Of a stretch of 62,295 bases of DNA, positions 3,445 to 29,845 are shown one piece after another. A model generated the notes under the pieces. That model was given only the letters and a program-made list of their open reading frames with translations. It did not search any database and was not told the origin of the DNA. The position numbers and the translations under genes were made by a program. Within the stretch, counting starts at the first letter, position 1. Each line of letters starts with the position of its first letter. The stretch is from an uncultured archaeon (GTDB lineage: Archaea > Altiarchaeota > Altiarchaeia > IMC4 > QMZM01): NCBI GenBank assembly GCA_965602195.1, contig CBFCYF010000002.1:1-62295 (forward strand), in the 5' to 3' direction.

Positions 3445-3621
3445 TGAATAGTAAGGGGATTAACATACCTTAATTCAGGTGTGCTCCAGTGCTTTGTCTA
3501 CTGCCTCTGGGTTATATCCTTCTTCCTTCAATATCTGCTTCAACACTGTTGGGTCCTCTCCCTCCTTCACTTCTTCTTTCACCCAATCTATCATTTCGTC
3601 TTTTTCTTTCTTCTTATCTGC

Positions 3622-4269
3622 TTATTTCTTTCCTTCCAGTCTTTTATAAACCAGAAACAGGATGATGCAGAGGGCTATGATAAATAGAACCACGTATAGG
3701 GTGTAGTCGGTATTCTGGGGGGTGTATGTTCTTCCGCAATCTGTGTCTTCCTCAACCGCACAGTCGGGGTCGCATCTGCCGTCTTCTATTCCATCGCAGT
3801 AGTTGTCCTGCCCTCCAGAGGGACAGTCTAGGGGGCAGTTAATGTAGTTTTCCTTTCTATCTGACTCACATATGGTGTTGTTGTTACAAACCAGAATCGT
3901 TGTCGTATTAGTAGTCGGCCTCACACTAGTCGTACTCGTTGATATGGTTGTTGTGGGTGGACTTTTGACTTTAACGGAGACGCAGTCGGATTTTCCTCCT
4001 TCATCGCATAACACTTTCAGGTAGTATGTTCCTTCTTTTGGGGGTGACCATTTTACTTCGCTACTGGAGATGGTAAATCCGTAGAGGGGTGAGCCCTCAC
4101 ATCGTGTTTCGAATACATCCAGTGATCCGGCTCCGTGTGGGCAATCTGAGGTACACCTGCAGTTGCCTACGTAGCATTCGGGACATGATATTGTGATCCC
4201 GTGTGCTGTTCCCATCAACATCAGTAGTATTATCCCTCCTGTTATCTTGTTCATGGTTTCACCGGGCAT
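3622..4269 (-). CDS. Membrane-anchored Cys-rich surface protein
   Basis: Signal peptide; two Cys-rich modules separated by a Thr-rich linker (SPPTTTISTSTTSVRPTTNTTT); C-terminal TM plus KRLEGKK anchor. Confidence 0.6.
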   Translation of the reverse strand: MPGETMNKITGGIILLMLMGTAHGITISCPECYVGNCRCTSDCPHGAGSLDVFETRCEGSPLYGFTISSSEVKWSPPKEGTYYLKVLCDEGGKSDCVSVKVKSPPTTTISTSTTSVRPTTNTTTILVCNNNTICESDRKENYINCPLDCPSGGQDNYCDGIEDGRCDPDCAVEEDTDCGRTYTPQNTDYTLYVVLFIIALCIILFLVYKRLEGKK

Positions 4270-7200
4270 GTTATGTCTATTACTTCGGTTGATTTAGACC
4301 ACGCGATTGGGTCTTCTAGTTTCGGGTCGGATTCCAGATATGCTCTCCATGATACTTCATAGTCGCCGGGTTCTACGGTAGAACAATAAATGATTCCTGA
4401 GGCGGTCCCTGTTCCTTCTGGGGCTACTGATGTCGAGACGGTTACAATTTTCCCTGTTTTAGTGTTCTTGAACAGGAATAATATGATAATGTCTTCTCCG
4501 GCACTGTTTTCATAATCTAGGTTGCATCTATATCCGCCTTCTATTGGACTACTGACGAAACTGTTGAATGAGTATTTGCCTGGAGTAATTGTGGTTGTTG
4601 TTGTGTCGGAGATGGTTGTTGTGGTGGTATCTGGTGGTGTGGTTGTTGTTGTGTCTGAGGTGGTGGTTGTGGTGTCGGAGATGGTTGTTGTGGTGGTTGT
4701 GGGGCATTCTGGGCATGGGTCAAGTTCTTCCATCAGGTATCTTATGACGTGTCCGCAGTCTGCTCCGTATAGGGTTGTGAATATATGGGCTTCGTAGCAG
4801 GATCCTGTGTTGGGTGTGTTTGGGGTCATTTCCAGGTCTATCCATATCCAGAATTGTTCTCCGCAGTGGGGGCCTTCCCTGATTTCTATCAGGGCCTCCT
4901 GTGATTCTCCGCCGCCTTCTGCACAACCTGTTTGCGTGCATCCTAAGTCTATGATCTTTATGTTATATTTGCTGTCCGTCACCCATGTGGGGTTGCTGTG
5001 GCTGTGGCAATCTGCTGGGATGGTGGTTGTTGTTGTGGTGTCTGATGTGGTTGTTGTTGTGGTGTCGGAGATGGTTGTTGTGGTGTCGGAGATGGTTGTT
5101 GTGGTGGTTGTTGGCGGCGTTCCCGGACAATCCACTGGATCTGTTATGCATGAGCCAAGGGCACAATTTGTAATGGTGCTACACCCCCCATCCATACAAT
5201 AACTCTCAAGAACATCAAGAGGCCAGGGGAGTTCTCGGTCACACCATTCGCAGCTGTTATCCAGGCATTCGTGGCAGTTGTCAAGATCTCCGCATTCTGT
5301 AGGTATCACACAAGCTCCGTTTTTGCATCCGTAGCCGGTTGGGCACGTGATGTCGATGGTTTCTATATAGTATGTGTCGACGCAGTAGTGTTCCCTTAGT
5401 TTATCACCTATGCAGGCGTCTTTTCCTCCTGTTCTGATTCGTGCGTCTCTTTCATTGGCGGCGTGTTTTCTGAAACCATATGTGTGTGCTTGTGTATAAT
5501 AGTCTTTTCCATTATCCGGGTCTGAGCATGGTTGTTTGGTGGAGTCAAATACTCTGCAACTGTCGGTTTCTTGATCCCAGTAGCATGTTGTGATGTCAAG
5601 GCAATTATCCATTGTTTTTTTATCTAAGCATTCACTTGTGTTTATCGTTGTAGTGGTGGTTGTATCTCCCGTTGTAGTAGTGGTTGTATCTCCCGTTGTA
5701 GTAGTGGTTGTATCTCCCGTTGTAGTAGTGGTTGTATCTCCGCAGCATATGTCTCCGCAGCAGCCGCTGGTGCAGTCTTTCACGTATACCCAGTGATAAA
5801 TTGCTGTGGTTGTTGTGGTGTCTGATGTGGTTGTTGTTGTGGTGTCTGATATGGTTGTTGTTGTGTCGGAGATGGTTGTTGTTGTGTCTGATGTGGTTGT
5901 TGTTGTGTCTGATGTGGTTGTTGTGGATGAGCTTGTGGATGATGTGGTGGATGAGCTTGTGGATGATGTGGTGGATGAACTTGTGGATGATGTGGTGGAT
6001 GAACTTGTGGATGATGTGGTGGATGAGGTTGTGGTTGTGTCACAGTCTACAACCTTGAAGCTGTTTTCCTCTTCTGCTTCACACCCGTTTATTATTGCCT
6101 CTACGACAAACCTTCTGGTCCCAGGGATACCAAGATCGTCACTCCACTCATAGACGCCAGTAGTGACCCGTTCAAAGCCGTTCGTAACTAAAATACCATC
6201 TGGGTAGGGGTGGTATGGGTTGTAGAGTATTACCCGATACCAGGATGGGTCTGTCAACTTTCCATCATATCTAAATCTTAGGGTTGCAGTGAATGTATCA
6301 CCTTCACAGTATTCATCCTTATCGAATTTAATTTCTACGGAACAGTCTCCGCCACAGTATACAACCTCAACGCTGTTTTCCTCTTCTGCTTCACATCCCT
6401 CTATTGTTGCTTCTGCATCCACCTCCAGGGTTCCTGTTGCCACCATCGTGAATCTCGCTTCCTGTATACCTTCTGACTTTTTTGTAAAACGATCTGAGTA
6501 ATCGCCTCCATCTACCAGCACCCTCCTCCAGGATGGATCCGTCAAGTCTCCATCATGTTTGAATTTTAGAGTTATTACTACTTCGTCTCCCACACAGTAT
6601 TCTGCTTTGTCAAATTCAATGTCTATGGAACAGTCTGGGGGTGTGCCACACTCACCAATCCAAAAACTTGTGGATGCAGGACTTGTATACGCCATTTGGT
6701 CTGCACTATCATATACCTTCCCAGAGAAGTGGTATGTGCCCTCTGTGGGTGGTACGTACGTCCAAGTATTGGAGCATGTAGTACTAGTCCCAGTGCACTG
6801 ATGGCTGTGCCACAAACCCCCATATTCGGCCTCGAGTTTAGCCATATCTATGTCGTCATACCCATTTATAGTGATATACATTGGCTGCCCGACACAAGGT
6901 GTAGCTGGGGTGTAGCTGAGGGTGCCAGACGGAGGATTATCCTGTGATGCTACGCATACTCCGTCCTCGCATGTTTTTCCTGCGTTACAGTCAGAGTCAA
7001 TGCGGCATTCTACTACATTAACATATACGCATTGTGGGTCTGTCCAACTCTCCTGGGAGCTACTATCAAGTACATAGCCACAGTACTCATATGTGCCTGT
7101 GGTCGACTCTGAGAAATCCCAAAATTTTATGCATTCAGTCTGAGTTCCAGAGCAAGATTGATGGTGCCAGGTGTTACCATACCATGCACTGACTTTAGCT

Positions 7201-7775
7201 ACATCTATATCATCCCTCCCATTTACAGTGATTTCTATCTGCTCCCCAATAAGGGCGGGACCGCCAGATGGCCAGACAGCCAGGAAACCCCAGGGAGGAT
7301 TATCCTGTGATGCTACGCATACTCCGTTTTCGCATGTTTTTCCTGCGTTACAGTCAGAGTCAATGCGGCATTCTACTACATTAACATATACGCATTGTGG
7401 GTCTGTCCAACTCTCCTGGGAGCTACTATCAAGTACATAGCCACAGTACTCATATGTGCCTGTGGTCGACTCTGAGAAATCCCAAAATTTTATGCATTCA
7501 GTCTGAGTTCCAGAGCAAGATTGATGGTGCCAGGTGTTACCATACCATGCACTGACTTTAGCTACATCTATATCATCCCTCCCATTTACAGTGATTTCTA
7601 TCTGCTCCCCAATAAGGGCGGGACCGCCAGATGGCCAGACAGCCAGGAAACCCCAGGGAGGATTATCTCCTGCAACAGAGCCTGCCAGAATAACCGTAAT
7701 CAAAACCAAACATAGGAGTAAACTCTTCCATCTCATTTTACTTCCCTTCCCGTGGCTGATACTATATGACCTCAT
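4251..7775 (-). CDS. Giant secreted adhesin-like surface protein (1174 aa) with a tandemly duplicated domain and Thr/Ser-rich linkers
   Basis: N-terminal signal peptide (a more likely start is M14 at 7736). It carries two identical 121-aa domains (DNPPWGF...CVASQ) plus a divergent third copy, multiple Cys-rich modules, and DTTTTT(S/I), GDTTTTTT and STSSSTTSS linkers. Confidence 0.75.
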   Translation of the reverse strand: MRSYSISHGKGSKMRWKSLLLCLVLITVILAGSVAGDNPPWGFLAVWPSGGPALIGEQIEITVNGRDDIDVAKVSAWYGNTWHHQSCSGTQTECIKFWDFSESTTGTYEYCGYVLDSSSQESWTDPQCVYVNVVECRIDSDCNAGKTCENGVCVASQDNPPWGFLAVWPSGGPALIGEQIEITVNGRDDIDVAKVSAWYGNTWHHQSCSGTQTECIKFWDFSESTTGTYEYCGYVLDSSSQESWTDPQCVYVNVVECRIDSDCNAGKTCEDGVCVASQDNPPSGTLSYTPATPCVGQPMYITINGYDDIDMAKLEAEYGGLWHSHQCTGTSTTCSNTWTYVPPTEGTYHFSGKVYDSADQMAYTSPASTSFWIGECGTPPDCSIDIEFDKAEYCVGDEVVITLKFKHDGDLTDPSWRRVLVDGGDYSDRFTKKSEGIQEARFTMVATGTLEVDAEATIEGCEAEEENSVEVVYCGGDCSVEIKFDKDEYCEGDTFTATLRFRYDGKLTDPSWYRVILYNPYHPYPDGILVTNGFERVTTGVYEWSDDLGIPGTRRFVVEAIINGCEAEEENSFKVVDCDTTTTSSTTSSTSSSTTSSTSSSTTSSTSSSTTSSTSSSTTTTSDTTTTTSDTTTTISDTTTTISDTTTTTTSDTTTTTAIYHWVYVKDCTSGCCGDICCGDTTTTTTGDTTTTTTGDTTTTTTGDTTTTTTINTSECLDKKTMDNCLDITTCYWDQETDSCRVFDSTKQPCSDPDNGKDYYTQAHTYGFRKHAANERDARIRTGGKDACIGDKLREHYCVDTYYIETIDITCPTGYGCKNGACVIPTECGDLDNCHECLDNSCEWCDRELPWPLDVLESYCMDGGCSTITNCALGSCITDPVDCPGTPPTTTTTTISDTTTTISDTTTTTTSDTTTTTTIPADCHSHSNPTWVTDSKYNIKIIDLGCTQTGCAEGGGESQEALIEIREGPHCGEQFWIWIDLEMTPNTPNTGSCYEAHIFTTLYGADCGHVIRYLMEELDPCPECPTTTTTTISDTTTTTSDTTTTTPPDTTTTTISDTTTTTITPGKYSFNSFVSSPIEGGYRCNLDYENSAGEDIIILFLFKNTKTGKIVTVSTSVAPEGTGTASGIIYCSTVEPGDYEVSWRAYLESDPKLEDPIAWSKSTEVIDITCPVKP
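5647..5741. repeat. 24-bp coding tandem repeat x4 (GDTTTTTT)
   Basis: gttgtagtagtggttgtatctccc is repeated four times. Confidence 0.85.
5921..6030. repeat. 27-bp coding tandem repeat x4 (STSSSTTSS)
   Basis: The unit gatgatgtggtggatga(g/a)cttgtg is repeated; similar imperfect ggttgttgttgtggtgtcggagatg repeats occur at about 4596-4720, 5021-5115 and 5806-5900. Confidence 0.8.
6931..7656. repeat. Perfect 2 x 363-bp tandem duplication inside the giant gene
   Basis: Sequence 6931-7293 is repeated at 7294-7656 with no visible mismatches; it encodes the duplicated 121-aa domain. Confidence 0.9.
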
Positions 7776-7777
7776 TT

Positions 7778-8596
7778 TTATTCACACCTATATAACTTAG
7801 AATCGGCACAGCATGTGGCGCCGAAGGTCGGGCACTCACCTCCCTCAACGCATTGTGTTATCGTCGTAGTGGTTGCTGGAGTAGTTGAGGTAGTGGTTGT
7901 ATCCGTCGTCGTAGTGGTTGATGGAGTAGTTGAGGTAGTGGTTGTATCCGTCGTCGTAGTGGTTGCTGGAGCAGTTGTTGTCGTGACTACAGCTTCACAG
8001 TCCAGCAGGCATAACTCATAATAAACCTCGGCGGCCTCATAACATGCCTCTTTAAGTCCACTGCATACGCTGCTGGGATACCCTGCCCTAGTGCAGAGCT
8101 CGTATCTCCCATCACATGTTTCATGACGGTACTCTTTTGTGAGATCACATATCTCCGTGCATGAGGATGTCGCTTGGAGGATATTCACAATCGGCTCCCC
8201 GGAGTAGACTCCGGCATAAGAGCAGTCGGCTTCACCCATATCCTTATGTCCAAGATAGAATATAATGATGTCACTCACCTGCTCCCTGCTGAACCTGCTG
8301 GTGCCCACCGGTTTAGTAGTGTAGTCTCCCACCACCTCATGCACCATAGACCTGAAATCAGCATCTGAGGGGCAGGGAAACGGTTGGTCAGGAGGGCATA
8401 ACCCGACAAGCTCCTCGATTTCGCCGTCACTGAGGGAGGTGTATGTCTTCAGGTAATCCCTCATCTTGTCCTCCACCTCCCTATCAAAGCTCTGGTCAAA
8501 ATCAAAAGCCAAGGAGTTTGAGATCAGGAGCAATAGAGACAACAATATAGACATCAAAATAATTTTATTTCCTATGTTCTTCGTTATATTTAACAT
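7778..8596 (-). CDS. Secreted protein with a Thr-rich C-terminal linker and terminal Cys knot
   Basis: Signal peptide MLNITKNIGNKIILMSILLSLLLLISNSLA; a C-terminal 15-aa repeat TTTTTDTTTTSTTPS; it sits 2 nt upstream of the giant gene. Confidence 0.6.
   Translation of the reverse strand: MLNITKNIGNKIILMSILLSLLLLISNSLAFDFDQSFDREVEDKMRDYLKTYTSLSDGEIEELVGLCPPDQPFPCPSDADFRSMVHEVVGDYTTKPVGTSRFSREQVSDIIIFYLGHKDMGEADCSYAGVYSGEPIVNILQATSSCTEICDLTKEYRHETCDGRYELCTRAGYPSSVCSGLKEACYEAAEVYYELCLLDCEAVVTTTTAPATTTTTDTTTTSTTPSTTTTTDTTTTSTTPATTTTITQCVEGGECPTFGATCCADSKLYRCE
7861..7980. repeat. 45-bp coding tandem repeat of about 2.7 copies
   Basis: tcgtcgtagtggttg(c/a)tggagtagttgaggtagtggttgtatccg is repeated. 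Confidence 0.8.
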
Positions 8597-8663
8597 TTTT
8601 TTTCAGGTTAATGGGATGAGTAATCCTTTTAGGTGGTTAAGCTGCCTCCTCTGGTTCCATGAT

Positions 8664-8978
8664 CTAGCTTACAGTGAGACAGCATTTCTTCAGGTGTTTG
8701 CAGCACTCTTGTGGCGTCACCATGTTGAGTTCCCGGAGTTTTGTGTAGCATGTTCCGGCTTCGTCTGCGGCATTACATGCATCCACCTGGATGTCTGAGA
8801 GGGCTTCGGCTGGTGTCCCAGCTGGTAGCGTTGTTGTTTCCGCTGGCGGTTGCTCCGATGTCTCAGACGAGATAAGAACATATGCAAGTATACAGAGAAC
8901 TGCTATTCCGGTCACAGTAAATATCGTTTTACTCTCCATTCCACTACCTACTGTATTCTTTATTAATATATTATGCAC
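8664..8978 (-). CDS. Small secreted Cys-containing protein
   Basis: TM/signal segment IFTVTGIAVLCILAYVLISS followed by a Thr/Pro linker and 6 Cys; the start is probably the internal MESK. Confidence 0.45.
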   Translation of the reverse strand: MHNILIKNTVGSGMESKTIFTVTGIAVLCILAYVLISSETSEQPPAETTTLPAGTPAEALSDIQVDACNAADEAGTCYTKLRELNMVTPQECCKHLKKCCLTVS

Positions 8979-9017
8979 TAGACTACTATAAAAACATTTC
9001 GTTTGTTTAAGTTACAT

Positions 9018-9587
9018 CTAGATGGTAGTTGTGATGCAACAGTCACCGTAGGTTATGCAGCAGCATTCTACATAATCTACTCCGCAGAAATTATCCAGGC
9101 CGGCGGGAAAGCCGGCAAAGCATGTCCCCCAACCATCATGATCTTTGCATTTAGTTTCTGAATCTGGGCATGATGCCGCAAATACTGCCTCACAGTATTG
9201 GAGTGGCGGCACCCATCCCCCCTCATCACATCCAAAGGGAAGTATGTCTGTATTATCAATTAAATAATTAATCACTGGCAGCGCAACCAAAACTATGATC
9301 ACCCCTATGAAGATATGTGAAATCCTGCCCCGTATATCATTCCTCTGCTCTATATCTTCAGTCGTCATATACTCTATGCCGTACACGATCAAAGCCAGGG
9401 TGGCTAAAAGGCCTATGATCAACCAGATAGTGTCCAGGAGAAAGCAGACTATGTCATTAATTCGGCGTATAATCATATCCACATCAGAGAGTGTTGTGGT
9501 TGGCGTCTGTGCCCAGACTGGGGAAATCAAGGCTGACACCATCAATAATATGAGTACACTCTTCCATAATCTAATCTGTAATCCCAT
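9018..9587 (-). CDS. Hairpin-motif membrane protein paralog 4 with a Cys-rich C-terminal ectodomain
   Basis: Signal peptide; hairpin LIVYGIEYMTTEDIEQRNDIRGRISHIFIGVIIVLVAL aligns with the hairpins of 1514-3003; C-terminus CCCITYGDCCITTTI. Confidence 0.6.
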   Translation of the reverse strand: MGLQIRLWKSVLILLMVSALISPVWAQTPTTTLSDVDMIIRRINDIVCFLLDTIWLIIGLLATLALIVYGIEYMTTEDIEQRNDIRGRISHIFIGVIIVLVALPVINYLIDNTDILPFGCDEGGWVPPLQYCEAVFAASCPDSETKCKDHDGWGTCFAGFPAGLDNFCGVDYVECCCITYGDCCITTTI

Positions 9588-9699: not shown

Positions 9700-11730
9700 A
9701 TGAGCACCCTCATCATCACCGAAAAGCCAAGTGTGGCGGCCAGAATCGCCAGCTCCATCGGAAACGCCGACAAGAAAAGCAAAAACGGAGTCCCCTACTA
9801 TGAAGTCAACGGCGACTATGTTGCCCCAGCAGTAGGACACATACTCTCCCTGGATGAAAAGAAGAAAGCCGGGTGGAGGTATCCTGTATTTGACATAGAG
9901 TGGAAGCCCTCCTACACAGTAAATAAGGGCTCTAAATTCACCAAACAATACTTTAACAACATAAAATCTCTCGCAAAAAAATGTGATTCATATATAAACG
10001 CCTGCGATTATGACCTCGAGGGAGAGGTGATAGGATTTAATGTTATAAAACACATCTGCGAGGTGGACCCCACATCCCCTAAGGTTTTAAGGATGAAGTA
10101 CTCCACCCTTACAAAGGAATCCATAACCCGGGCATATGAAAACCTGGAGTCCCCCAATAAAGGGATGGCGGATGCGGGATTAACAAGACATATCCTTGAC
10201 TGGTACTGGGGCATAAACCTCTCCCGGGCCTTAACCCTGGCTGTCAGACGGGCACGGGGTTACACCACACTGAGTATCGGGAGAGTTCAGGGTCCTGCCC
10301 TGAAGATTCTGGCTGTGAGAGACAGGGAGATAAAGAAATTTAAGCCAACGCCTTACTGGGAGATAGAGATGCTGGCGGTTAAAGACAAAAAAAAGATATC
10401 TGCTATGCATTCAGGAGGCAGGTTCCTGGAGAAAGAGAAGGCGGAGTCTGTTAAGAAGAGATGTGGGAAAACAACTGTCGTGGAAAGCACACGCAGAAGT
10501 AAAATCCAACAAAAACCTCCCTCCCCCTTCGACCTCACCACACTCCAGACAGAGGCATATAAACACCTTAATATCGCCCCCAGGGATACCCTGCAGATCG
10601 CCCAGGAGCTATATACTAACGCATACATCAGCTACCCGAGAACCTCATCCCAGCAGTTACCCAGGGAAATAGATTTCAGAGAGATAATCAGGAAACTCTC
10701 AGGGATATACGGGAAGGAAACAGGCATCCTACTGTCAAAGAAGAAGCTTACCCCCTGTAATGGGAAGAAGAAGGATCCCGCTCACCCAGCCATCCACCCT
10801 ACCGGTGAGACTCCCACGAGCATAGCAGGAGGTAGAAAGAAAATATATGACCTGATATGCCGGAGGTTCTTCGCCACCTTCGGAGACATTGCAGTCAGAG
10901 AAACCATGACCATAAAATTAGATAATAACTCTGAGATATTCATAGCTAAAGGCACCCTAACTGTTGAGAAGGGATGGCATACCCTCTACGGCAGATATGC
11001 TAGATTCAAGGAGGAAGAGTTACCGGAACTCAGAAAAGGCGACAAGCTGAAGGTGGAGAAAATAACCGTATATGGGAAGGAAACCCAGCCACCTAAGAGA
11101 TACACGCCCTCATCCATTATCCGGGAAATGGAGAAGAGAGACCTGGGAACTAAAGCCACACGCTCCCATATCCTGGACATTCTGTTTAAGAGAGGCTATT
11201 TGAAGGGTAAATCCATAGAAGTCACTCCTTTAGGGATGAAGGTGGTTGATACCATGGACAAGTATTGTCCTGAGGTAGTCAGTGTGAAACTAACCCGGAA
11301 ATTCGAGGATGAGATGAAACAGATAGAGTCCGGGAAACTCCCTATGGCGGAAGTTGTTAAGGAGGGGGAGGAAATGCTGATAAAGATATCCAAAGAGTTC
11401 ACGGGGAATGAGAAAGAAATCGGGGAATCCCTGGCGTCCTCTCTGATAAGTACCCGGGAAGAGAAAAAAGAGGGTCTAGGTAAATGCATGAAATGTGATG
11501 GAAACCTTGTCCTTAGAAAATCAAAATTCGGCGGCTATTTCGTCGGATGCGACAGCTACCCCCAATGCAGGTTCACTATTTCTATGCCTAAAGGTAATTT
11601 GAAGGAATCAGGTAAATGTAAGGAATGCGGCTACTCAAAGATAACTGTGTTCAGGGGTAAGGGTAAAAAACCCTGGTCATTCTGCATTAACCCTAAGTGC
11701 CCTACAAAGAAGAGATTCAATGCCCGGTAA
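9700..11730 (+). CDS. topA: DNA topoisomerase I (type IA) with C-terminal zinc ribbons
   Basis: Toprim N-terminus; active-site Tyr context ELYTNAYISYPRTSS; C-terminal CMKCDG...CDSYPQCRF and CKECG...C zinc ribbons. Confidence 0.85.
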   Translation: MSTLIITEKPSVAARIASSIGNADKKSKNGVPYYEVNGDYVAPAVGHILSLDEKKKAGWRYPVFDIEWKPSYTVNKGSKFTKQYFNNIKSLAKKCDSYINACDYDLEGEVIGFNVIKHICEVDPTSPKVLRMKYSTLTKESITRAYENLESPNKGMADAGLTRHILDWYWGINLSRALTLAVRRARGYTTLSIGRVQGPALKILAVRDREIKKFKPTPYWEIEMLAVKDKKKISAMHSGGRFLEKEKAESVKKRCGKTTVVESTRRSKIQQKPPSPFDLTTLQTEAYKHLNIAPRDTLQIAQELYTNAYISYPRTSSQQLPREIDFREIIRKLSGIYGKETGILLSKKKLTPCNGKKKDPAHPAIHPTGETPTSIAGGRKKIYDLICRRFFATFGDIAVRETMTIKLDNNSEIFIAKGTLTVEKGWHTLYGRYARFKEEELPELRKGDKLKVEKITVYGKETQPPKRYTPSSIIREMEKRDLGTKATRSHILDILFKRGYLKGKSIEVTPLGMKVVDTMDKYCPEVVSVKLTRKFEDEMKQIESGKLPMAEVVKEGEEMLIKISKEFTGNEKEIGESLASSLISTREEKKEGLGKCMKCDGNLVLRKSKFGGYFVGCDSYPQCRFTISMPKGNLKESGKCKECGYSKITVFRGKGKKPWSFCINPKCPTKKRFNAR

Positions 11731-12913
11731 TTTCTTCCATAGTGGATATAAACTTCTCCACCTCCCCTAAAGTATTATATAAATAAAGGGATGCCCTGAC
11801 AGAGCCATCTATCCCCAGTATATCCCTCATCAAGGGCATAGCGCAGTGGTCTCCCGATCTAACATCTATATCTCCTTTCACCTCCAGGAGCCTTGCAACC
11901 TCCTCAGGTTCTAAACCATCCACATTAAAGGGCACTATACCTACTCTACTATCTGAGGTTCTGGCTCCATAGAATTCCACCCCCTCACCCGCAATATCCT
12001 CTAATCCAGCTACTAGTTTCTTAACCAATCTCCTCTCATGGCTCTCTATTTCATCCATACCCACATCCTTAAGGTAATTAACTGCTCTTTCAAATCCTAT
12101 GGCTCCTGCGATATTCGGGGTTCCTGCCTCCCACCTATCTGCTGTTTTCTTTAGTTCATATCCCTCCATTGATACGTCTGCGACGGTTCCTCCCCCTAAA
12201 ACGCCCGGCTCCATGTCATCTACCAGATCCTCCCTTATATATAATCCGCCGACTCCTGTGGGCCCAAGCATTTTATGGGCTGAGAAGGCGAAGAAATCAC
12301 ACCTAATTTTTTTTACATCCACCTTTATGTGGGGGGCTGATTGAGCCCCGTCAACCAGGAACAGGCAGCTGTTATCCTGGCAGATCCTCCCTATATCCTC
12401 TACTGGTGCTATGGAGCCCAATACATTGGAGATATGGCCTACAGCAACCAGCTTTGTTTTGTCGTCGATCACCTCCCTGAAGTCCTCAACGTCAAGGACA
12501 CCCTCATAGCTGGGCTTGATTGTGGTTAACTCAACACCCTTCTTCCTCAGCCTTAACCATGGGAGTAGATTGCTGTGATGTTCCAGCAGGGTTGTGACTA
12601 TCCTGTCTCCCTTCTCCCAACCTAAACTTAATGCAACTAAATTTATACCTTCGGTTGTATTTTTGGTGAACGCCAGTTCCCTCTCATCTGCGTTGATGAA
12701 TCCTGCTACAGTACTCCGTGCTCTTTCATATCTATCGGATGCAGTTTGGGATATACGGTAACTACCCCTGTGTATATTCGCCCTATACCCTCTATAGTAT
12801 CCCATGATGGAGTCAAGAACAGGCTCCGGAGTTAATGTGGAGGCTGCACTATCCATGTATATCATGCCCTGCTTAAGTATAGGGAAGTCCTCCCTGATTC
12901 CCTCCACATCCAT
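11717..12913 (-). CDS. sufS: Cysteine desulfurase (class V aminotransferase, SufS/CsdA-like)
   Basis: PLP-Lys motif FSAHKMLGPTGVGGLYI; conserved HHSN and catalytic-Cys region RSGDHCA. Confidence 0.8.
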   Translation of the reverse strand: MDVEGIREDFPILKQGMIYMDSAASTLTPEPVLDSIMGYYRGYRANIHRGSYRISQTASDRYERARSTVAGFINADERELAFTKNTTEGINLVALSLGWEKGDRIVTTLLEHHSNLLPWLRLRKKGVELTTIKPSYEGVLDVEDFREVIDDKTKLVAVGHISNVLGSIAPVEDIGRICQDNSCLFLVDGAQSAPHIKVDVKKIRCDFFAFSAHKMLGPTGVGGLYIREDLVDDMEPGVLGGGTVADVSMEGYELKKTADRWEAGTPNIAGAIGFERAVNYLKDVGMDEIESHERRLVKKLVAGLEDIAGEGVEFYGARTSDSRVGIVPFNVDGLEPEEVARLLEVKGDIDVRSGDHCAMPLMRDILGIDGSVRASLYLYNTLGEVEKFISTMEEITGH

Positions 12914-12973
12914 ATTATTTAATTGTTACTTCACAAGTATTATATTAGTCTATCAGGGCCCGTGAGCTCAGCT

Positions 12974-13029
12974 CTCGGAGTTAGCCGAGGACTAAGGTGT
13001 GTTTCGCCCTTCAGGGGCTCAAGCACACT
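12974..13029 (+). repeat. Partial copy (5' half) of the ~123-bp structured repeat family
   Basis: ctcggagttagccgaggactaaggtgtgtttcgccc...ctcaagcacact matches the units at 29880-30127. Confidence 0.7.
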
Positions 13030-13107
13030 TATTTAACATAAAAATCACAACCTTAATCGTTCAGCAGACTCAACAAATAAAAAAAAAAATTCAGGGGCGT
13101 CCTCTCA

Positions 13108-13283
13108 GGGCCCGTGGCTCAGCATGGTTAGAGCGCTCGACTGATAATCCCGATGCAGTCATAAGACACCCTAAGGAACCCTCCTTTTTGTCTGTGAACT
13201 GTCCACAGGGAATACCTAGTGTTCCTTGTACCCTCCAGGGATTAGTAATCGAGAAGTCCGGAGTTCAAATCTCCGCGGGCCCA
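13108..13283 (+). tRNA. tRNA-Ile(GAT) with a ~101-nt intron at the canonical 37/38 position
   Basis: Exon 1 GGGCCCGTGGCTCAGCATGGTTAGAGCGCTCGACTGATA; exon 2 ATCGAGAAGTCCGGAGTTCAAATCTCCGCGGGCCCA. The 7-bp acceptor, D, anticodon (CTCGA/TCGAG, loop CTGATAA) and T arms all pair. The intron is about 13147-13247. Confidence 0.8.
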
Positions 13284-13347
13284 CCTTTCTTTTAGGAAAA
13301 GAAACGTGGACGAAAGAAAAAGGAATTCGCTTCGCGAATTCAATATT

Positions 13348-13686
13348 TTAACTTAAATACTTTTCCCTGGTTTTTTTGACTGTTCCGGAGACTCCGAGAA
13401 CATGGGGTATTACCCTGATTTCATTGATTTCCTTCATCAAAGCAAGAGCTGCCCTAACATCATCCACACATCGATTATTAACTTTAAGGATGCCTCTCTG
13501 GTTTTCCTTATCCCACTCCATCATCCAGAGGCTGGTTTCACTAACGCCTCTCTCCCCTAGAAACCTAAGGGAGCTCCGCCAGACAGCCTTCGTAACATCC
13601 TCCCGGCAGAACCTGTGACCTGATATTAACTCAAATGCCAGGTATCGGTTCCTCTCCCGCATCGTGGAAGGTATAGGCTTAAGCAT
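13348..13686 (-). CDS. rnp2: RNase P protein component 2 (Pop5/Rpp14 family)
   Basis: ERNRYLAFELI...VWRS...LGVSGTVKK matches the archaeal Pop5 pattern (RYIAFEV...GVSGTIKR). Confidence 0.7.
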   Translation of the reverse strand: MLKPIPSTMRERNRYLAFELISGHRFCREDVTKAVWRSSLRFLGERGVSETSLWMMEWDKENQRGILKVNNRCVDDVRAALALMKEINEIRVIPHVLGVSGTVKKTREKYLS

Positions 13687-13776
13687 TTTTCATCCCTCAG
13701 ATAGAATAATTATTTACGATTAGTATCTAATATAACTCTCTGTGAGATATATGAATGCCCACATAGGGTGGCACAG

Positions 13777-13888
13777 CAACTGCCACAGCCAGTTGACATC
13801 TGGGTGCTACATTCGCTACGCTCAGCAGCACTCAACTGCCACAGCCAGTTGACATCTGGGTGCTACATTCGCTACGCTCAGTAGCACT
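13777..13888. repeat. 2 x 56-bp tandem direct repeat upstream of tRNA-Arg
   Basis: caactgccacagccagttgacatctgggtgctacattcgctacgctcag(c/t)agcact is repeated with 1 mismatch. Confidence 0.85.
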
Positions 13889-13917
13889 TAACAAACAAAA
13901 AAAACAACGTAACGCCC

Positions 13918-13991
13918 GCATAGGGTAGCATGGATATCCTGGGGGATTGCGGATCCCCTGACTCGGGTTCAAATCCCGGTGCGGGCAAACA
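13918..13991 (+). tRNA. tRNA-Arg(GCG)
   Basis: GCCCGCA acceptor pairs with TGCGGGC; anticodon arm GGGGA-TTGCGGA-TCCCC gives anticodon GCG; T arm TCGGG-TTCAAAT-CCCGG; discriminator A. Confidence 0.8.
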
Positions 13992-14147
13992 CTTGTGGGC
14001 TCGTTTCCCAACGACACACTGCGGTTTCAATACTTAAGCTTCGTTGAAAACCGTTGATCCCTGTTTAGGCTAATTTTTTCCGGCAACAAATCCCGGCACA
14101 TGTCCAGCTGATCTACCAGTTAATTCATCAGATAATCCCTTTAAAAG

Positions 14148-14900
14148 TTATTCATCGTTATCGCAGATGTTGTTAACATTTTTATCCAAGCAGCAGCCTC
14201 TGCCGTGGCGGATGTAAGGTGGATTGCAGACGACTTTCTTCGCTTCCGGTTCCTCTCTGCTAAACCCAATGAGACGCTTCATCTCCCCCACCACCGACTT
14301 GACGATGTTGACAACCTCGCCGACGGCCTCCTTCACAAACCCAGTTGCTCTCTCAATGATTCCCCGCTCTTTTTCCGGCGACTCACCGGCTCCCGCCAAC
14401 AACCCCTCCACCTGCACAAACTCTCCCTCCAGCTTCATAGACTCCAAGACTGGCTGAGCCTCCCAAGCATATCCGATGAGGTCCTCCTCCTGAGCGGAGA
14501 CAGTCGCCAGATACAACCGACCCCCAGCTGTGAAGACGTCATTGATGACGTAGACGTCAGGGTCGTTGGGGAGGTTAGACATGAAACGCATTGTTTTCTG
14601 GCCCGCAACATCCCCTGAGGGCATGTCCCTCAACAGGGCTCCAAACGTCTCAAGTTGCTTGCGGTACAAACGAATGGCGTCGCTGCCGCTTCCATTAAGA
14701 GGCACCCACGTCGCTGACAAGAGGACATCTCCAGGTTTTTCTGTGTGGGTGAGGGAGAGCATGTTATCTGTTTTGCCGCTGATACGCCAGCGGTTGCTGT
14801 ACTCCAAGGTGATGCCGTTGGTTTCGGCGGTGTGGGTTGCGGCACCTGATGTGAACAACAACACAAACACCACCCCCAAAATCATCTTCTTTAAGTTCAT
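14148..14900 (-). CDS. Secreted hypothetical protein in the GC-rich island
   Basis: Signal peptide MNLKKMILGVVFVLLFTSGAATHTA; C-terminal Cys cluster; a 4-nt ATGA overlap with the upstream gene. Confidence 0.6.
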   Translation of the reverse strand: MNLKKMILGVVFVLLFTSGAATHTAETNGITLEYSNRWRISGKTDNMLSLTHTEKPGDVLLSATWVPLNGSGSDAIRLYRKQLETFGALLRDMPSGDVAGQKTMRFMSNLPNDPDVYVINDVFTAGGRLYLATVSAQEEDLIGYAWEAQPVLESMKLEGEFVQVEGLLAGAGESPEKERGIIERATGFVKEAVGEVVNIVKSVVGEMKRLIGFSREEPEAKKVVCNPPYIRHGRGCCLDKNVNNICDNDE

Positions 14901-17647
14901 TTTGATGTTGGAATAAATGTTTGAATAACACTATTTGCGACATTGTGAACATCACGGCTTCCCTCACGAGTCTTGACGTCGCCGGGTCTCCCGTTCAAGT
15001 ATCCCACCCATGTGTTGACGACTGCCGTATCCCCCCCGGGTGATGTGCGCAACATGCCGATGTGCTGAAGCTTGTCGTTGTAGTCTGCGATGTGGCGAAG
15101 CATGTGGCCCTGGGACTGGGCGAGCGTTTGCTGGCTCTGAAGCATCTGGTTGAAGGCCCTACGTGCGCCGGCATCGTCGCCGTCCCTAATGGCTTGGGCT
15201 GCCTGTTGCTCGTATCTTAGTGTCTGGTCGGCTTGGGACAGCACATTACGCCTGCGGGGGACGTTCTCCTGGCTGAAGGCGCCGACTCGGCTCCTGCTGC
15301 TCTGGACTTCACTCACATAGTTGGTGTTGCCCTTTACGTTCCCCTTAAAGTCGTTGAAGTTGCGGGTTGTGCTGGAGGCGCGGGCTACGCCGACGTTGTT
15401 GGCTACGTTGTTGTCGCGGTTTTTCTGCCCCCTGATCGTGTTCTCCAGGCGGTCGAGGTTGTCCATGCCGTAGGCGCCGCGCATCAAAGCCTGCTGGTTG
15501 AGGCCGATGAACTTGAAGACGCCGCTCATCGCGTTCATGGTTCCCTCAATAGCGCCGGTTGCCTCGTAGCCGAGGAAGTGGTCGCTTATCTTGATGATTT
15601 CGTTGTACATCTTATTCTTCATGGGGCCTGTCATCTTCTGGGCGATGTATTGTTTGATTGCTGTGGTCCCCGCCACGTAGACTGAGTTCGGGACGTAGTT
15701 TTTGATGGCGTCGGTCACTATCTTCTCATATCCCTGGATTGCGTAGAGGCTGTCGATGACTGCGGCTCCGGAGCGGGTCCGGTAGATGGACTTACCTATC
15801 TTGTCTACTCTAAACGCAGCCGAAAGTCCCCCTTGGAGCGTCGACTGTGAGGTCAAGCCGAGGCGCTGGGCCAAGCCCAGGTTTGCGGCGCGGCCGAGCT
15901 GCGCCGACGGCCCGAACGTGAGAAAGGTGTCCCAAGCGGAAAACTGGCGTGAAACAAAGTCTGCTTCGTTGTACTTAAGAATCTCTGTGTCGAAGTAGTC
16001 GCGTCCGATGTCGATGTTATACTGGGTCTTGTCGCCGTTGCGTATTGCGTTGACGTCTACGTTTCTGAAGGCGTCCCAGATGCGCTGTCTGAGCTTCTGG
16101 GCTTGGTCGTCTGTTAAGTCCTTCCCGTAGTGTTCCTTGATCACCTCCTTCAGTCTGTCCTTGCTGAACTTGTTCATTTCCTCAAAGGTGACCCCCTGGC
16201 GACGCAGGTCTTCTACCAGCTTGATGCCTGCTATCTGGCGGGTGGCCTCGTCCACCTGGAGGTCGGCCATGTCCCCGAGTATGTCGTAGTAGCCAGCTAG
16301 TGCCCCTATACTCTCTCCTACGCCTGTGGTGGCGACGTCGATGAGGATGTTGCCGATGCCCGCCTCGCCGTGGCTGTTGAGTTTGTCGTTGAATAACCTA
16401 GCGGTTTTGCTCATGTCCACTGAGAGGTGGTCACGGATGCGCTGCAGGTATTCGAGTTCGACGTTTTGGATGATGCGATTGGCAAAGAGGTTGTCTGGCT
16501 CTTCCTCAAGGATCTTGCGTGCGCTGTGGAGGGCCATGCGGGTGTCGCCTTCCATCTGCTGGCGGAAGACGTTTAGGGTGAGGGCGTCGACTCGGGCGCG
16601 TGGGTTGGCTGTGAGCTTGGGGAGCATCTCGTCGAACTTGTGGGTGGCTCCGCAGCGGAGCGTTAAACTCAGGTGGGTCATGTCGAGCTCTGTGCGGAGG
16701 AGGTTCAGGTAGTTAGAGTATTCATCACGGTGTTTGTAGTCGAAGAAGCCTCCATCCATGTTGTCGAGGATTTCATAGAGCTTTGAGGCTTGTCGCTCGA
16801 ATTCTTCAAGCAACTTGTCCTGCTCCTCACGGAGACGTTCAAGGTCCTTTTTGGCTTCTTCTTTATCTTCCTCTGATCCGTGCTTGAGCATCCATTCAGC
16901 GTCCCTGATCTGGGAGAGGATGTAGTCTGCTTCAGCGTAGAGGTCTTTAATGTCTTTGAGGAATCGGTTCTTCAAGGCTAGGTAGTCGACGACGTTGCGG
17001 GTGATGGCCCGTACTATCTTCTGTTGCTCGGTTTCCTCGGTCTCGACGCAGACGCATTCGTTGGGTTCGCTGTCTTCCTGCGAGAACTCGGTGCCTGGTT
17101 CCCGCTTGCAGACGTCCTCACATGATTCGCAGCCGTCGGCTGTCATCTGCCAGCCTACTTCGCAGATGCCTGTGCAGTCCCCTGAGTCGTCGATGACGCC
17201 TATCATATGTTCGCCTTTCTTCCGCCAATATTTGTCACATTCATCCTCTTCTTCGCTGTCGTATTCGCGGGCGGTGGATGTGGTCGGCGGCGAGGTCAAG
17301 GTCGTCGTCTCGCCGGGGCAGGGTTCATCGGGGAGGACGCATTTAATGAGGTAGCTGCCTGGACAAAAGTTGCCGCACTTCTTGCGGTCGAAGCTCTCGT
17401 AGTCTACAGGTCTTCTACAAGCTTTTGAGTACTTGTCCTCTTCCGGGTCGTCGATGTTGTCATTGGCAGCGCAGATGCAGGCCCGAGTGTAGCTCCAGTG
17501 GGCGTGGGGGCGGTTGTTGCAGTCCTCCTGTACACATCCCACACCGCTCATACGCTGCCAAGTAAAATCGGGAGGGCATTCGACTGCAGTAACACAGTTG
17601 GCCAACAAAAACAGGGAGAGCACGGTTACATAAAGCCTTTCTGTCAC
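14897..17647 (-). CDS. Large secreted protein (916 aa) with a Cys-rich N-terminal domain and long alpha-helical/coiled-coil region; GC-rich island
   Basis: Signal peptide MTERLYVTVLSLFLLANCVTA; 20+ Cys in the first 200 aa; the rest is helical. Local GC is about 55-58%, against about 40% elsewhere. Confidence 0.65.
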   Translation of the reverse strand: MTERLYVTVLSLFLLANCVTAVECPPDFTWQRMSGVGCVQEDCNNRPHAHWSYTRACICAANDNIDDPEEDKYSKACRRPVDYESFDRKKCGNFCPGSYLIKCVLPDEPCPGETTTLTSPPTTSTAREYDSEEEDECDKYWRKKGEHMIGVIDDSGDCTGICEVGWQMTADGCESCEDVCKREPGTEFSQEDSEPNECVCVETEETEQQKIVRAITRNVVDYLALKNRFLKDIKDLYAEADYILSQIRDAEWMLKHGSEEDKEEAKKDLERLREEQDKLLEEFERQASKLYEILDNMDGGFFDYKHRDEYSNYLNLLRTELDMTHLSLTLRCGATHKFDEMLPKLTANPRARVDALTLNVFRQQMEGDTRMALHSARKILEEEPDNLFANRIIQNVELEYLQRIRDHLSVDMSKTARLFNDKLNSHGEAGIGNILIDVATTGVGESIGALAGYYDILGDMADLQVDEATRQIAGIKLVEDLRRQGVTFEEMNKFSKDRLKEVIKEHYGKDLTDDQAQKLRQRIWDAFRNVDVNAIRNGDKTQYNIDIGRDYFDTEILKYNEADFVSRQFSAWDTFLTFGPSAQLGRAANLGLAQRLGLTSQSTLQGGLSAAFRVDKIGKSIYRTRSGAAVIDSLYAIQGYEKIVTDAIKNYVPNSVYVAGTTAIKQYIAQKMTGPMKNKMYNEIIKISDHFLGYEATGAIEGTMNAMSGVFKFIGLNQQALMRGAYGMDNLDRLENTIRGQKNRDNNVANNVGVARASSTTRNFNDFKGNVKGNTNYVSEVQSSRSRVGAFSQENVPRRRNVLSQADQTLRYEQQAAQAIRDGDDAGARRAFNQMLQSQQTLAQSQGHMLRHIADYNDKLQHIGMLRTSPGGDTAVVNTWVGYLNGRPGDVKTREGSRDVHNVANSVIQTFIPTSK

Positions 17648-17969
17648 ATCACACCACCTCGTTTAAAATATTTATTTTCTTTCCCTCCTTAAATAGCTGA
17701 AAGTAGTGTCCAGCCTTCACACCAGCTCATCATCTGATTTTTTGAAATCTCCATCATCATACCTATTATCTATTATTATTTAAAGAAAAAAAATCGAGTT
17801 TACAGCAGAGCAAGAATATGAGGTTTGAAAATCACTTGTTTCTCATCCTCCGGCTCCAGATTACCTCACCTATTAAGTCCTAAAGTGGTAGCTATCAAAC
17901 AAACAAAAGGTTTTTATAGAAGCGGGTCTAATTATTTACAGTTGTAAAAAAGTTAAACGACAATCTTAA

Positions 17970-18614: not shown

Positions 18615-19556
18615 TGTACTATCCCCCCACATATGTTACACTTTTGATTTTGAGTGTAAATAAGTATGAGGTGGGTTAGTATGAAGCTTTCAGTAAAACA
18701 GAGGTTTTGGATTGTTAAGCGGCGCTTGCAGGGGGTGAGTGTCGTTTTTATCTGCCGGCAGGCAGGGATTAGTAGGCGTACCTTTTATTATTACTGGCTT
18801 AGGTTCCAGCGTGAGGGGTGGAAGGGTCTTGGAATAAAGTCCCGCAGGCCTCATACGATCCATCGGACACCCCAGGAGACGGTTGATTTAGTAATTGAGT
18901 TGCGTGAAACCAAGGGGTGGGGCCCTTCAAGGATTGAAGGATACTTACATCAGAACAAACCGGAAGGGGTTAAGTTGGTTGGCCACAACACGATATATAG
19001 AATCATCAAGCAGGCAGGTCTTAACAACCCACTTGATAAGCCCCGGAAGACTTGGGGTAAAAAACGTTTCCAGAGAAGCAAACCAAACGAGATGTGGCAG
19101 GCAGACTGGAAGCTTACAAGAGAAGATGAATGGATGATTACCTATCTAGATGACTATAGTCGGTTCATACCCTCAAGCCAGGTGTTTGAAAATGCAAACA
19201 CAGAGAATGCACTAGCTGTGCTGGAGGAAGCAATGGATGAACACGGCACACCCAAGCAGATACTAACCGATCAGGGAGCTCAGTTCTACACCTGGCAGGA
19301 AGATGGAAAAACCAAATTCACAAAATACCTGGAACGCAAGGATATACAGCACATAGTAGCAAGCAAGAGAAGACCAACAACGATAGGTAAAGTGGAGCGC
19401 TTCCACAGATCTTATGAAGAAGAAGCTTGGCGATACTCTAACCATGGGATGTACATACAACATTACAACTACGAACGTCCACATCAGGCGTTAGATTATT
19501 TAACGCCTGCAGGCGTATATTTTAAAGAAGTGTAACATATCTCAGGGGATAGTACA
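18615..19556 (+). mobile_element. IS481-family insertion sequence (942 bp)
   Basis: 12-bp perfect terminal inverted repeats TGTACTATCCCC (18615-18626 and 19545-19556) starting with TGT; a single HTH+rve transposase ORF; flanked by a 16-bp direct duplication gtatccgctgaatcaa (18599-18614 and 19557-19572). Confidence 0.8.
18666..19535 (+). CDS. IS481-family transposase (HTH plus DDE integrase core)
   Basis: N-terminal HTH (GISRRTFYYYWLRF); DDE residues in WQADW, YLDDYSR and KVERFHRS. Confidence 0.8.
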   Translation: MRWVSMKLSVKQRFWIVKRRLQGVSVVFICRQAGISRRTFYYYWLRFQREGWKGLGIKSRRPHTIHRTPQETVDLVIELRETKGWGPSRIEGYLHQNKPEGVKLVGHNTIYRIIKQAGLNNPLDKPRKTWGKKRFQRSKPNEMWQADWKLTREDEWMITYLDDYSRFIPSSQVFENANTENALAVLEEAMDEHGTPKQILTDQGAQFYTWQEDGKTKFTKYLERKDIQHIVASKRRPTTIGKVERFHRSYEEEAWRYSNHGMYIQHYNYERPHQALDYLTPAGVYFKEV

Positions 19557-29736: not shown

Positions 29737-29845
29737 AACTGGCAACTCGGTCAGTGGGACCAATCGTAGCGCACGTTCCACCTTTCGCTAACGAAAAAAA
29801 TCTTCGATTTTTGAGTTCCTAAAATCGGCAAAGCTGATTTTCCAG

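Follow-up and report, generated by a model that had tools for sequence, protein, structure and literature searches.

Orphan tRNA fragments are known as markers of integration that confuse the annotation of tRNA genes (PMC9897764), and they are central to models of interrupted and split archaeal tRNA genes (PMC3293823). In Caldiarchaeum subterraneum, a 5' fragment of tRNA-Thr (tRNA-Thr-F, positions 1-27) and the intact gene downstream of it are 1.8 kb apart, and the DNA between them holds a putative recombinase (Sugahara et al. 2012, PMC3293823). Casposons, some of which sit at the ends of tRNA genes, produce target-site duplications of 1-27 nt with a median of 15, and the CRISPR repeat is duplicated at each insertion of a spacer (PMC4046053). 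The 62,295-nt stretch of DNA analysed here (contig CBFCYF010000002.1 of assembly GCA_965602195.1, hereafter the window) carries two tRNA genes only, tRNA-Ile(GAU) and tRNA-Arg(GCG), and each of them is preceded by a degenerate partial copy of its own 5' end, from which it is separated by a short non-coding segment containing a hairpin-forming repeat that we named E. Our preferred, though tentative, explanation is that these pseudo-5' halves are earlier 5' ends of tRNA-Ile and tRNA-Arg, left stranded beside their old promoters after insertion of a small E-containing cassette that duplicated its target.

The host of the window is judged to be an archaeon of the Altiarchaeota group; the closest homologues of its Pop5 protein are named Candidatus Altiarchaeota or Altiarchaeales, and no record of the exact window Pop5 protein was found. 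For comparison, more than 90 loci (given L numbers below) were collected around Pop5 homologues and were scanned for tRNA genes and for copies of tRNA ends, the latter within a radius of 400 nt around the tRNA genes. A close relative of the window, with a Pop5 96% identical to that of the window, is represented by three assemblies: L003 (ENA), L004 (a metagenome-assembled genome from NCBI) and L005 (Logan).

On the Ile side, CTATCA-GGGCCCGTGAGCTCAGC in the upstream copy (A1) matches CTCTCA-GGGCCCGTGGCTCAGC in the functional copy (A2) at a spacing of 152 nt, while on the Arg side AAT-GCCCACATAGGGTGGCA (13754-13773) matches AAC-GCCCGCATAGGGTAGCA (13911-13930) at a spacing of 157 nt, with 17 of 20 positions identical. 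The repeated block amounts to 22-23 nt and is made of 3-6 leader bases and tRNA positions 1-16/20, the likeness extending past the mature 5' end in both cases (CTATCA against CTCTCA for Ile, AAT against AAC for Arg). A reading of the window made from its letters alone (the sequence-only reading) had reported that both tRNA genes are preceded by degenerate copies of their own 5' ends, and the alignments, the shuffles and the relatives all bear this out. That reading had placed the pseudo-Arg copy (13757) and tRNA-Ile (13108) correctly, whereas the pseudo-Ile copy starts at 12956 instead of 12962 and tRNA-Arg at 13914 instead of 13918; its spacing of 146-161 bp gives way to the start-to-start distances above.

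The strength of the two matches was assessed by local alignment against 2000 dinucleotide-preserving shuffles of each upstream region, a shuffled-sequence test having been proposed with the sequence-only reading. The Ile match scored 34, clearly above chance, against a shuffle maximum of 23 and a best score of 22 elsewhere in the window on both strands. The Arg match scored 25 and beat its shuffle maximum of 22, but two unrelated sites in the window scored 24-25 and, taken alone, the Arg match of the window is marginal. In L003 and L004, however, the Arg copy (AACGCCCGCATAGGGTGGCACGG) is identical to the gene at 21 of 23 positions and scores 36. The arrangement of copy, E and tRNA is also found in L003, L004 and L005 (in L005 on the Arg side only, the contig ending 115 nt upstream of tRNA-Ile), and it is therefore no assembly artefact. 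A resemblance due to chance, for which the two sites in 62 kb that equal the score of the window Arg match could be cited, is effectively refuted by an Ile match far above every shuffle and the rest of the window, by the closer Arg match in L004, by the position of both copies on the correct side in the same layout and by analogous cases in other genomes, and we give it next to no weight.

Empty tRNA-Ile sites, in which an intact tRNA directly follows an intergenic region and the upstream copy is absent, were identified in five relatives (L011, L112, L113, L104 and L106). Three of these, L011, L112 and L113, keep the synteny of the cysteine desulfurase gene (cysDes), tRNA-Ile and Pop5, with the intact tRNA ~50 nt from the cysDes start; in the window, the pseudo-half occupies that position, 45 nt from the cysDes start. 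In L104 and L106, tRNA-Ile lies after its upstream intergenic region with other neighbouring genes. L106 and L001 provide a clean pair of empty and filled sites: the topA-proximal sequence CCTAATTTTTATGG..AATCGAATA.. precedes the real tRNA-Ile in L106, and the same sequence in L001 precedes a pseudo-half of 22 nt, after which come unrelated hairpin-forming DNA (69 nt) and the real tRNA. From the comparison of empty and filled sites, the Ile upstream copy therefore marks the former start of the tRNA beside the older promoter. L036 represents a third independent case, with a perfect 28/28-nt copy of the tRNA-Ile 5' end 153 nt upstream and E directly after it. The event that creates an upstream copy thus appears, from these loci, to have happened several times in different lineages. 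A comparison of related tRNA loci had been suggested with the sequence-only reading; copies are present in the close relatives, L001 and L036 and absent from most orthologous loci.

Among ~25 distinct tRNA loci near Pop5, copies of the 5' end were found upstream only (window Ile and Arg, L001 and L036). Copies reaching from the T-loop to the 3' end (21-39 nt) were found downstream only, at 60-270 nt, for tRNA-Arg in L003/L004, tRNA-Ile in L017, L031 and L034, and tRNA-Pro in L028; they are separated from the intact genes by hairpin-rich DNA, in which a motif GGGAGGGTCAGGATGGCCCC..GGGGACATGAAAG recurs between the tRNA and its 3'-end copy in L031 and L034. Overall, a partial copy of one end was present near ~9 of the ~25 loci, always on the matching side. 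Control searches (5' query downstream, 3' query upstream and reverse complements) gave scores of 21 or less except in L017, where a score of 26 was reached because the tRNA 3' end and trailer resemble the tRNA 5' start. A comparable arrangement away from tRNA genes was found in L106 (2032-2159, and the same in L107), where a non-tRNA trailer hairpin is present as a 31-nt direct repeat, 94% identical, on both sides of E. The order is that of the window, namely repeat, E with its first hairpin against the repeat, short tail and repeat. Over these few sites the flanking repeats measure 22-23 nt (window Ile and Arg), 22 nt (L001), 28 nt (L036) and 31 nt (L106).

The spacing of the repeats is nearly equal in three independent cases (152, 157 and 153 nt, the last from positions 1878/2031 of L036), and is 92 nt in L001. 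In L001, the pseudo-half and the 69-nt insert (3557-3648, minus strand) form one long imperfect hairpin of -31.4 kcal/mol (z = -4.1), in which the pseudo-half is paired to GGGCTACAGGC, a stretch close to the insert's end; this modelled fold suggests a rearrangement of fold-back type in that lineage.

The sequence-only reading had also noted that a repeat follows each copy, a structured repeat (12975-13035) in one case and a 56-bp tandem (13777-13888) in the other. This was confirmed, and the two were found to belong to one family, E. An E unit consists of a first hairpin with a stem of 5-6 bp and a loop of 6-7 nt, a short linker and a second hairpin with 7-10 bp; ACTTAA or a T-rich tail comes next. 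The inserted segment on the Ile side (X_Ile) contains a complete two-hairpin E (~12975-13035), a spacer, the 3' end of a 5'-truncated E with an A-rich tract (13058-13091) and then 10 bases. In both window inserts the right ends align as CGYTCAGYAG(C)ACTYAACAAAYAAAAAAAA (CGTTCAGCAGACTCAACAAATAAAAAAAAAAA for Ile and CGCTCAGTAGCACTTAACAAACAAAAAAAAC for Arg); sharing the E family and homologous right ends, the two inserts are therefore the same kind of cassette, made of E and then an A-rich tract, placed before two different tRNA genes. The left end of the inserted element is always the first hairpin of E, and its right end varies.

An nhmmer profile built from E copies detected three sites only in the window (12.97, 13.78 and 29.88 kb), two of which lie upstream of the two tRNA genes that it contains, at a distance within 150 nt. 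In other loci the profile detected relatives of E directly 3' of tRNA-Arg in L004, after the pseudo-half of L036, as 64-nt tandem units 3' of Pop5 in L012/L013 and after Pop5 in L106. An E-like two-hairpin sequence directly 3' of tRNA-Ile in L036 was recognised by eye and by folding, not by the profile. The E element at 12975-13035 folds better than its shuffles (z = -3.0). Paired changes in the stems of different E copies (GTGCTAC/GTAGCAC versus GAGCCAC/GTGGCTC, and CAACTG/CAGTTG versus GAACTG/CAGTTC and GAACCG/CGGTTC) argue for conservation of the structure, an argument built on single-sequence folds and on compensatory changes read by eye; RNAalifold applied to a MAFFT alignment of hairpin 2, in which the stems were misaligned, gave no consensus. 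A search of 12900-14100 and 29750-30200 against Rfam with E-values up to 10 gave no meaningful match for E. At the third site, a 127-bp tandem repeat (29865-30127, 2 copies) combines an E element with a G7/C7 hairpin and a AGCCTTTCTTAAAGGCT hairpin between a PAC2-family gene and a gene convergent with it. In the closest relatives carrying PAC2 homologues (L108 and L109) the contigs end 47 nt past the PAC2 gene, short of the array, and at more distant PAC2 homologue loci the neighbouring gene differs.

Several other origins for the inserts were considered and set aside. The possibility that the inserted segment is the degraded remainder of a tRNA copy was rejected, its similarity to the rest of the tRNA not exceeding that of shuffles, and so the segment is foreign to the gene. 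An origin of the IS200/IS605 type was dropped because the E copies have no common preceding target sequence, and CRISPR-like arrays of repeats and 'spacers' (L012/L013 and L106) were dropped because the 'spacers' are mutually homologous and 40-70 nt long. A retroposon-like origin, with an A-rich tail beside the repeat, fits the Arg insert only, and not the Ile insert (in which 10 bases separate tail and repeat), L036, L001 or L106. Scans of IMG/VR with the structured-repeat hairpin, the degenerate 56-bp motif and the Arg 5' block returned either zero or 18 matches, the 18 being at chance level by the nhmmer E profile.

Both copies end in the D-loop, at positions 16-20. Position 14 of tRNAs is an A; the Arg copy has G14, and in the window it additionally has A5, so that the pair with C68 is broken. 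Neither base is compatible with a working tRNA. Between the window and L004, 4-fold degenerate sites of cysDes and Pop5 differ at 29 of 201 positions (14%). The pseudo-Arg copy has decayed at about this neutral rate (3/23, 13%), and the figure for the pseudo-Ile copy, 0/23, is uninformative. The Arg insert differs at 2 of 134 sites and the Ile insert at 1 of 110 aligned sites, with two indels. Judged by these rates, the inserts are conserved well beyond the neutral expectation, which would fit an upstream control region of the tRNA that now lies within them; the same rates could alternatively be read as concerted evolution among E copies. The intergenic stretches upstream of the pseudo-copies are identical between window and L004 at 41/42 (P_Ile) and 62/66 (P_Arg) positions.

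The copies could instead be functional, serving as halves of split tRNAs, as alternative 5' exons or as leaders resembling the tRNA 5' end, whose pairing with the acceptor 3' strand would regulate processing. Such a role would suit a layout that is common to both neighbouring tRNAs with the near-equal spacings given above, a pseudo-Ile copy identical in the window and L004, the small dyads at the junctions (GTGGCA-N7-TGCCAC and GAGC-TCA-GCTC) and the inclusion of the L001 copy in a long hairpin (z = -4.1). However, a copy that ends in the D-loop lacks an anticodon arm and a bulge-helix-bulge partner, and the Arg copy combines G14 and the A5-C68 mismatch of the window with a change of 13% between close relatives. 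No 3' half and no other tRNA or tRNA fragment was found in the window, a search for matching 3' halves having been proposed with the sequence-only reading; most orthologous loci have no copy, and the Arg region folds no better than shuffles (z = -1.0). We consider a function for the copies very improbable and regard them as probably non-functional, and the suggestion that they are relics of split tRNA genes is not supported, on the same observations.

Relative to the mature 5' end, the A-rich tract spans -33 to -17 for Ile and -26 to -10 for Arg, roughly the position of a TATA box, and AT-rich boxes are found at suitable distances upstream of both pseudo-copies as well, these promoter assignments being made from position only. 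A duplicated promoter or leader, which had been put forward as an origin of the copies, is not supported by the loci, where the shared leader amounts to 3-6 bases and the two upstream regions are unrelated.

In view of these findings, our proposal is that a non-coding segment of ~130 nt may have inserted into the D-loop region of each gene in the lineage of the window. The segment would have had a fixed order, with one or two copies of E, their 5' end against the old tRNA fragment, followed by the A-rich TATA-like tract, and its insertion would have duplicated or brought in ~22 nt of target, namely 3-6 leader bases and tRNA positions 1-16/20. This would leave, in order, the old promoter with the old 5' end (A1), then E, and then the new promoter with the new 5' end (A2) and the remainder of the tRNA. 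In such an arrangement the intact gene could now be driven from the A-rich tract of the insert, and E could act as a terminator or insulator for transcripts from the old promoter. The proposal draws on the repeat itself, its side-specific layout, the empty tRNA-Ile sites, the family relationship of the inserts, their conservation and the decay of the Arg copy. In its general form, insertion of a small cassette with target duplication, it is favoured by flanking repeats of 22-31 nt, by the constant polarity and by the non-tRNA case in L106, and was ranked first, remnants of attachment-site (att) integration and illegitimate recombination being serious rivals. Flanking repeats of this length would suit a staggered-cut (Cas1/casposase-like) integration of a tiny non-autonomous cassette as well as att-type site-specific recombination. 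All three mechanisms agree in making the pseudo-halves scars.

A number of points weigh against insertion of such a cassette. No recombinase, no constant element end and no terminal inverted repeats were found at the inserts, and the scans of IMG/VR viral contigs with E motifs and the Arg 5' block revealed no attP-like junction and no free or circular insert. The length of the tail from E to A2 ranges between 13 and 66 nt, and flanking repeats that span 22-31 nt, and are longer in some of the 3' cases, are unusual for an enzyme with a fixed stagger. In L004 and L036, E-like elements also abut the 3' ends of intact tRNAs, so that A1 succeeded by E might just as well be an internally deleted tRNA copy. 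The sample consists of two tRNA genes of this genome, the empty-site comparison covers tRNA-Ile only, tRNA-Arg being without a comparable locus, and the promoter and terminator roles of the insert are putative.

Integration of a virus or plasmid offers a different route to the same layout, in which the 5' part of the tRNA would have been attB, the copies would be attL and attR, and the element would have been deleted save for E by attL and the promoter by attR. tRNA genes are the standard integration sites of archaea and partial tRNA direct repeats the standard footprint (PMC8371274, PMC3293823, PMC9897764); the 3'-end copies found in other loci start at the T-loop (position -21), a classical integrase sublocation. 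Just past tRNA-Arg begins a 3.5-kb island with a GC content of 0.55-0.57 against ~0.46 in its flanks, and L004 differs from the window from the tRNA-Arg 3' end onwards. The pseudo-half of L001 moreover has A9 and G23 like the tRNA-Ile allele of L017/L104, and its intact copy has the other allele, which hints at different sources. While tRNA-Arg, with this island and the differing sequence of L004, looks like an integration hotspot, integrase or cargo was found at 0/9 loci and repeat spacings did not exceed ~300 nt in a search within 400 nt. The inserts at different tRNAs share one non-coding family, which also occurs at non-tRNA host sites (29.9 kb, L012/L013 and L106), and they are strongly constrained instead of decaying. 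That no attP-like junction was found in the viral contigs scanned counts here too, and archaeal integrases prefer 3' ends (PMC8371274). We keep the footprint of recombination or integration at tRNA genes, also suggested by the sequence-only reading, as best supported in outline, by the empty sites, the expected side, the boundary at the tRNA 5' end and the island past tRNA-Arg, but between the repeats there is no integrated element or integrase, just 129-134 nt of a conserved hairpin-repeat family, and a deleted virus or plasmid seems to us unlikely.

About equally unlikely, in our view, is local illegitimate recombination without any mobile element, either as a tandem duplication of tRNA plus trailer in which most of the upstream copy was later deleted, or as homology-facilitated recombination with DNA of a related strain having a different tRNA upstream region, with junctions at hairpin bases. 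Many short tandem duplications (16, 56, 64, 127 and 363 bp) are present in the intergenic regions, E or the trailer hairpin sits directly at the 3' ends of intact tRNAs (L004 and L036), the pseudo-half of L001 is followed by a hairpin resembling that tRNA's own trailer, and L017 looks like a ~147-nt tandem duplication of a tRNA 3' end and its trailer. Short similarities are also present at the junctions, GTRGCAC of the Arg copy resembling GTAGCAC at the end of an E unit and GAGCTC lying at the Ile junction, and a donor and recipient that differ only outside the tRNA would set the repeat boundary at the tRNA 5' end automatically. Against this, recombination of either kind would require a pair of precise events, or else a join at exactly E's first base, and this in four independent cases; the inserted segments hold no trace of the rest of the tRNA and are not repeated downstream of the intact genes; and the constant polarity of A1, E, tail and A2, including the non-tRNA site of L106, suggests a directional mechanism.

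The coordinates of the features of the locus are collected in Table 1.

Table 1 Features of the two tRNA loci and of other positions in the window (A1, upstream copy; X, inserted segment; A2, functional copy; P, intergenic region upstream of a pseudo-copy)
Feature	Position	Strand	Basis
Topoisomerase I	9700-11730	+	
Cysteine desulfurase (cysDes)	11717-12913	-	
P_Ile, putative intergenic promoter region beside the start of the divergent cysDes; now precedes the pseudo-5' end only	12914-12949	+	Empty sites of five relatives
A1_Ile, pseudo-5' end of tRNA-Ile: CTATCA + GGGCCCGTGAGCTCAGC (leader -6..-1, positions 1-16, one extra base)	12950-12972	+	
X_Ile, inserted segment	12973-13101	+	Repeat search, E profile, folding
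A2_Ile, functional copy of the repeated block: leader CTCTCA + tRNA-Ile positions 1-16	13102-13123	+	
tRNA-Ile(GAU), with intron of ~101 nt after position 37 (~13147-13247)	13108-13283	+	Rfam RF00005, 51.9 bits; Aragorn intron option i(40,101)
tRNA-Ile trailer module: hairpin CCTTTCTTTT/AAAAGAAA, then hairpin GGAATTCGC-TTCG-GCGAATTC	13284-13345	+	
RNase P protein subunit Rpp14/Pop5 gene, flanked by the two tRNA genes	13348-13686	-	Pfam PF01900, E = 4.9e-20
P_Arg, intergenic, from Pop5 start to pseudo-Arg copy; TAATATAA box centred ~26 nt upstream of the copy	13687-13753	+	Read from sequence; putative promoter role
A1_Arg, pseudo-5' end of tRNA-Arg: AAT + GCCCACATAGGGTGGCACAG	13754-13776	+	
X_Arg, inserted segment: two 56-bp E units (13777-13832, 13833-13888) + A-rich tail (13889-13910)	13777-13910	+	
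Leader AAC + tRNA-Arg(GCG) (13914-13987), functional copy	13911-13987	+	Aragorn; Rfam, 53.7 bits
Further E copies in 127-bp tandem repeat between two convergent genes; tRNA not nearby	29865-30127	+	

The island past tRNA-Arg (14100-17650) contains two minus-strand open reading frames (ORFs) of 250 and 916 aa without a Pfam or PHROG match, and a 10-nt exact match to the T-arm of tRNA-Arg (CAAATCCCGG) is located at 14087. The nearest transposase, outside the repeats, is encoded by the ORF at 18666-19535, which carries a helix-turn-helix domain and an rve domain (DDE integrase core) and is IS481-family-like. On the other side of the locus, an ORF of 1174 aa within 4251-9587 contains many short tandem repeats, including a 363-bp repeat in two copies (6931-7667), and the small protein adjoining it (9018-9587) matches pilin families of type IV secretion systems (TrbC/VirB2).

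The intron of tRNA-Ile(GAU), of ~101 nt, is at the canonical position 37/38, and related introns of 84-105 nt with similar ends (ATCCC...GGGATNATAA) were found in L106, L008/L010, L112/L113 and L036; the intron is absent from L001, L011, L017, L104, L030, L031 and L034. Its presence or absence appears, across these loci, to be polymorphic within Altiarchaeota and independent of the pseudo-halves. The trailer module (CCTTTCTTTT..AAAAGAAAGG, then GGAATTCGC-TTCG-GCGAATTC) follows tRNA-Ile in the window, L001 and L017 and tRNA-Pro in L028, with compensatory changes. Its second hairpin gave a weak, sub-threshold Rfam match to CRISPR-DR63 (27.6 bits against a gathering score of 37) and is found three times 3' of Pop5 in L106. 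In L002, a tRNA-like T-arm and acceptor 3' strand at 4124-4341 (minus strand) was called by Aragorn as tRNA-Glu with a 122-nt intron, and Rfam reported nothing there at its gathering threshold; the site may be an unusually interrupted tRNA gene.

tRNA fragments arise at these loci on a scale of ~150 nt without an element body, and they do so at both tRNA ends. If a dedicated insertion mechanism were true, the inserts would represent a small mobile regulatory cassette of a new kind; if there were none, the loci would still document cleanly, as a natural record, how promoters were replaced at essential single-copy tRNA genes. It is also conceivable, though decidedly unlikely, that E is what is visible of a hitherto undescribed class of tiny cassettes in archaea (~60-135 nt), composed of a terminator-like double hairpin and a promoter-like A-rich tail, which insert directionally into tRNA ends and other hairpin targets and duplicate 22-31 nt, a stagger otherwise typical of Cas1-type integrases. 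Such a class, if real, would rewire tRNA promoters, create stand-alone tRNA 5' and 3' fragments and be a possible source of split tRNA genes.

Compared with described systems, the repeats of the window resemble the att repeats of archaeal elements such as SSV1 and the pNOB8-type plasmids in being terminal tRNA copies in direct orientation, on the matching side and bounded at the tRNA end, and, as with att-flanked elements, relatives hold the uninterrupted empty site, here of tRNA-Ile. The Caldiarchaeum fragment is likewise a 5' piece upstream of an intact gene; unlike its 1.8 kb with a putative recombinase gene, the repeats of the window enclose 129-134 nt of non-coding hairpin repeats without a recombinase, and the insert belongs to a host-wide, selectively constrained repeat family. 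Long flanking direct repeats are shared with casposons, which are found at the last 4-7 nt on the 3' side of the tRNA and do not go into the gene, whereas the inserts of the window enter it. The inserts also differ from casposons in having no terminal inverted repeats and no Cas1 or PolB gene, in their size of ~70-135 nt and in their variable right ends. CRISPR repeats are similar in length to the repeats that flank the window inserts.

In being a short, structured, intergenic family that is sometimes tandem and apparently supplies an A-rich TATA-like tract and terminator-like hairpins, E is comparable to repeats of the miniature inverted-repeat transposable element (MITE) and repetitive extragenic palindromic (REP) kinds and to 'mobile promoters'. 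A typical MITE is bounded by terminal inverted repeats and duplicates 2-10 bp of its target; E differs in its flanking repeats of 22-31 nt and in the location of two of its three window sites inside tRNA genes. A stand-alone 5' piece followed by structured sequence is also reminiscent of the split and permuted tRNA genes of Nanoarchaeum equitans and Caldivirga maquilingensis, but the pieces described here end in the D-loop, have no complementary leader or 3' partner, have lost conserved nucleotides and lie 150 nt away from a complete gene. What seems to set these loci apart from known partial-tRNA repeats is the combination of scars on the 5' side, a scale of 150 nt, recurrence in Altiarchaeota and a tie to a two-hairpin family that seemingly replaces the tRNA upstream region.

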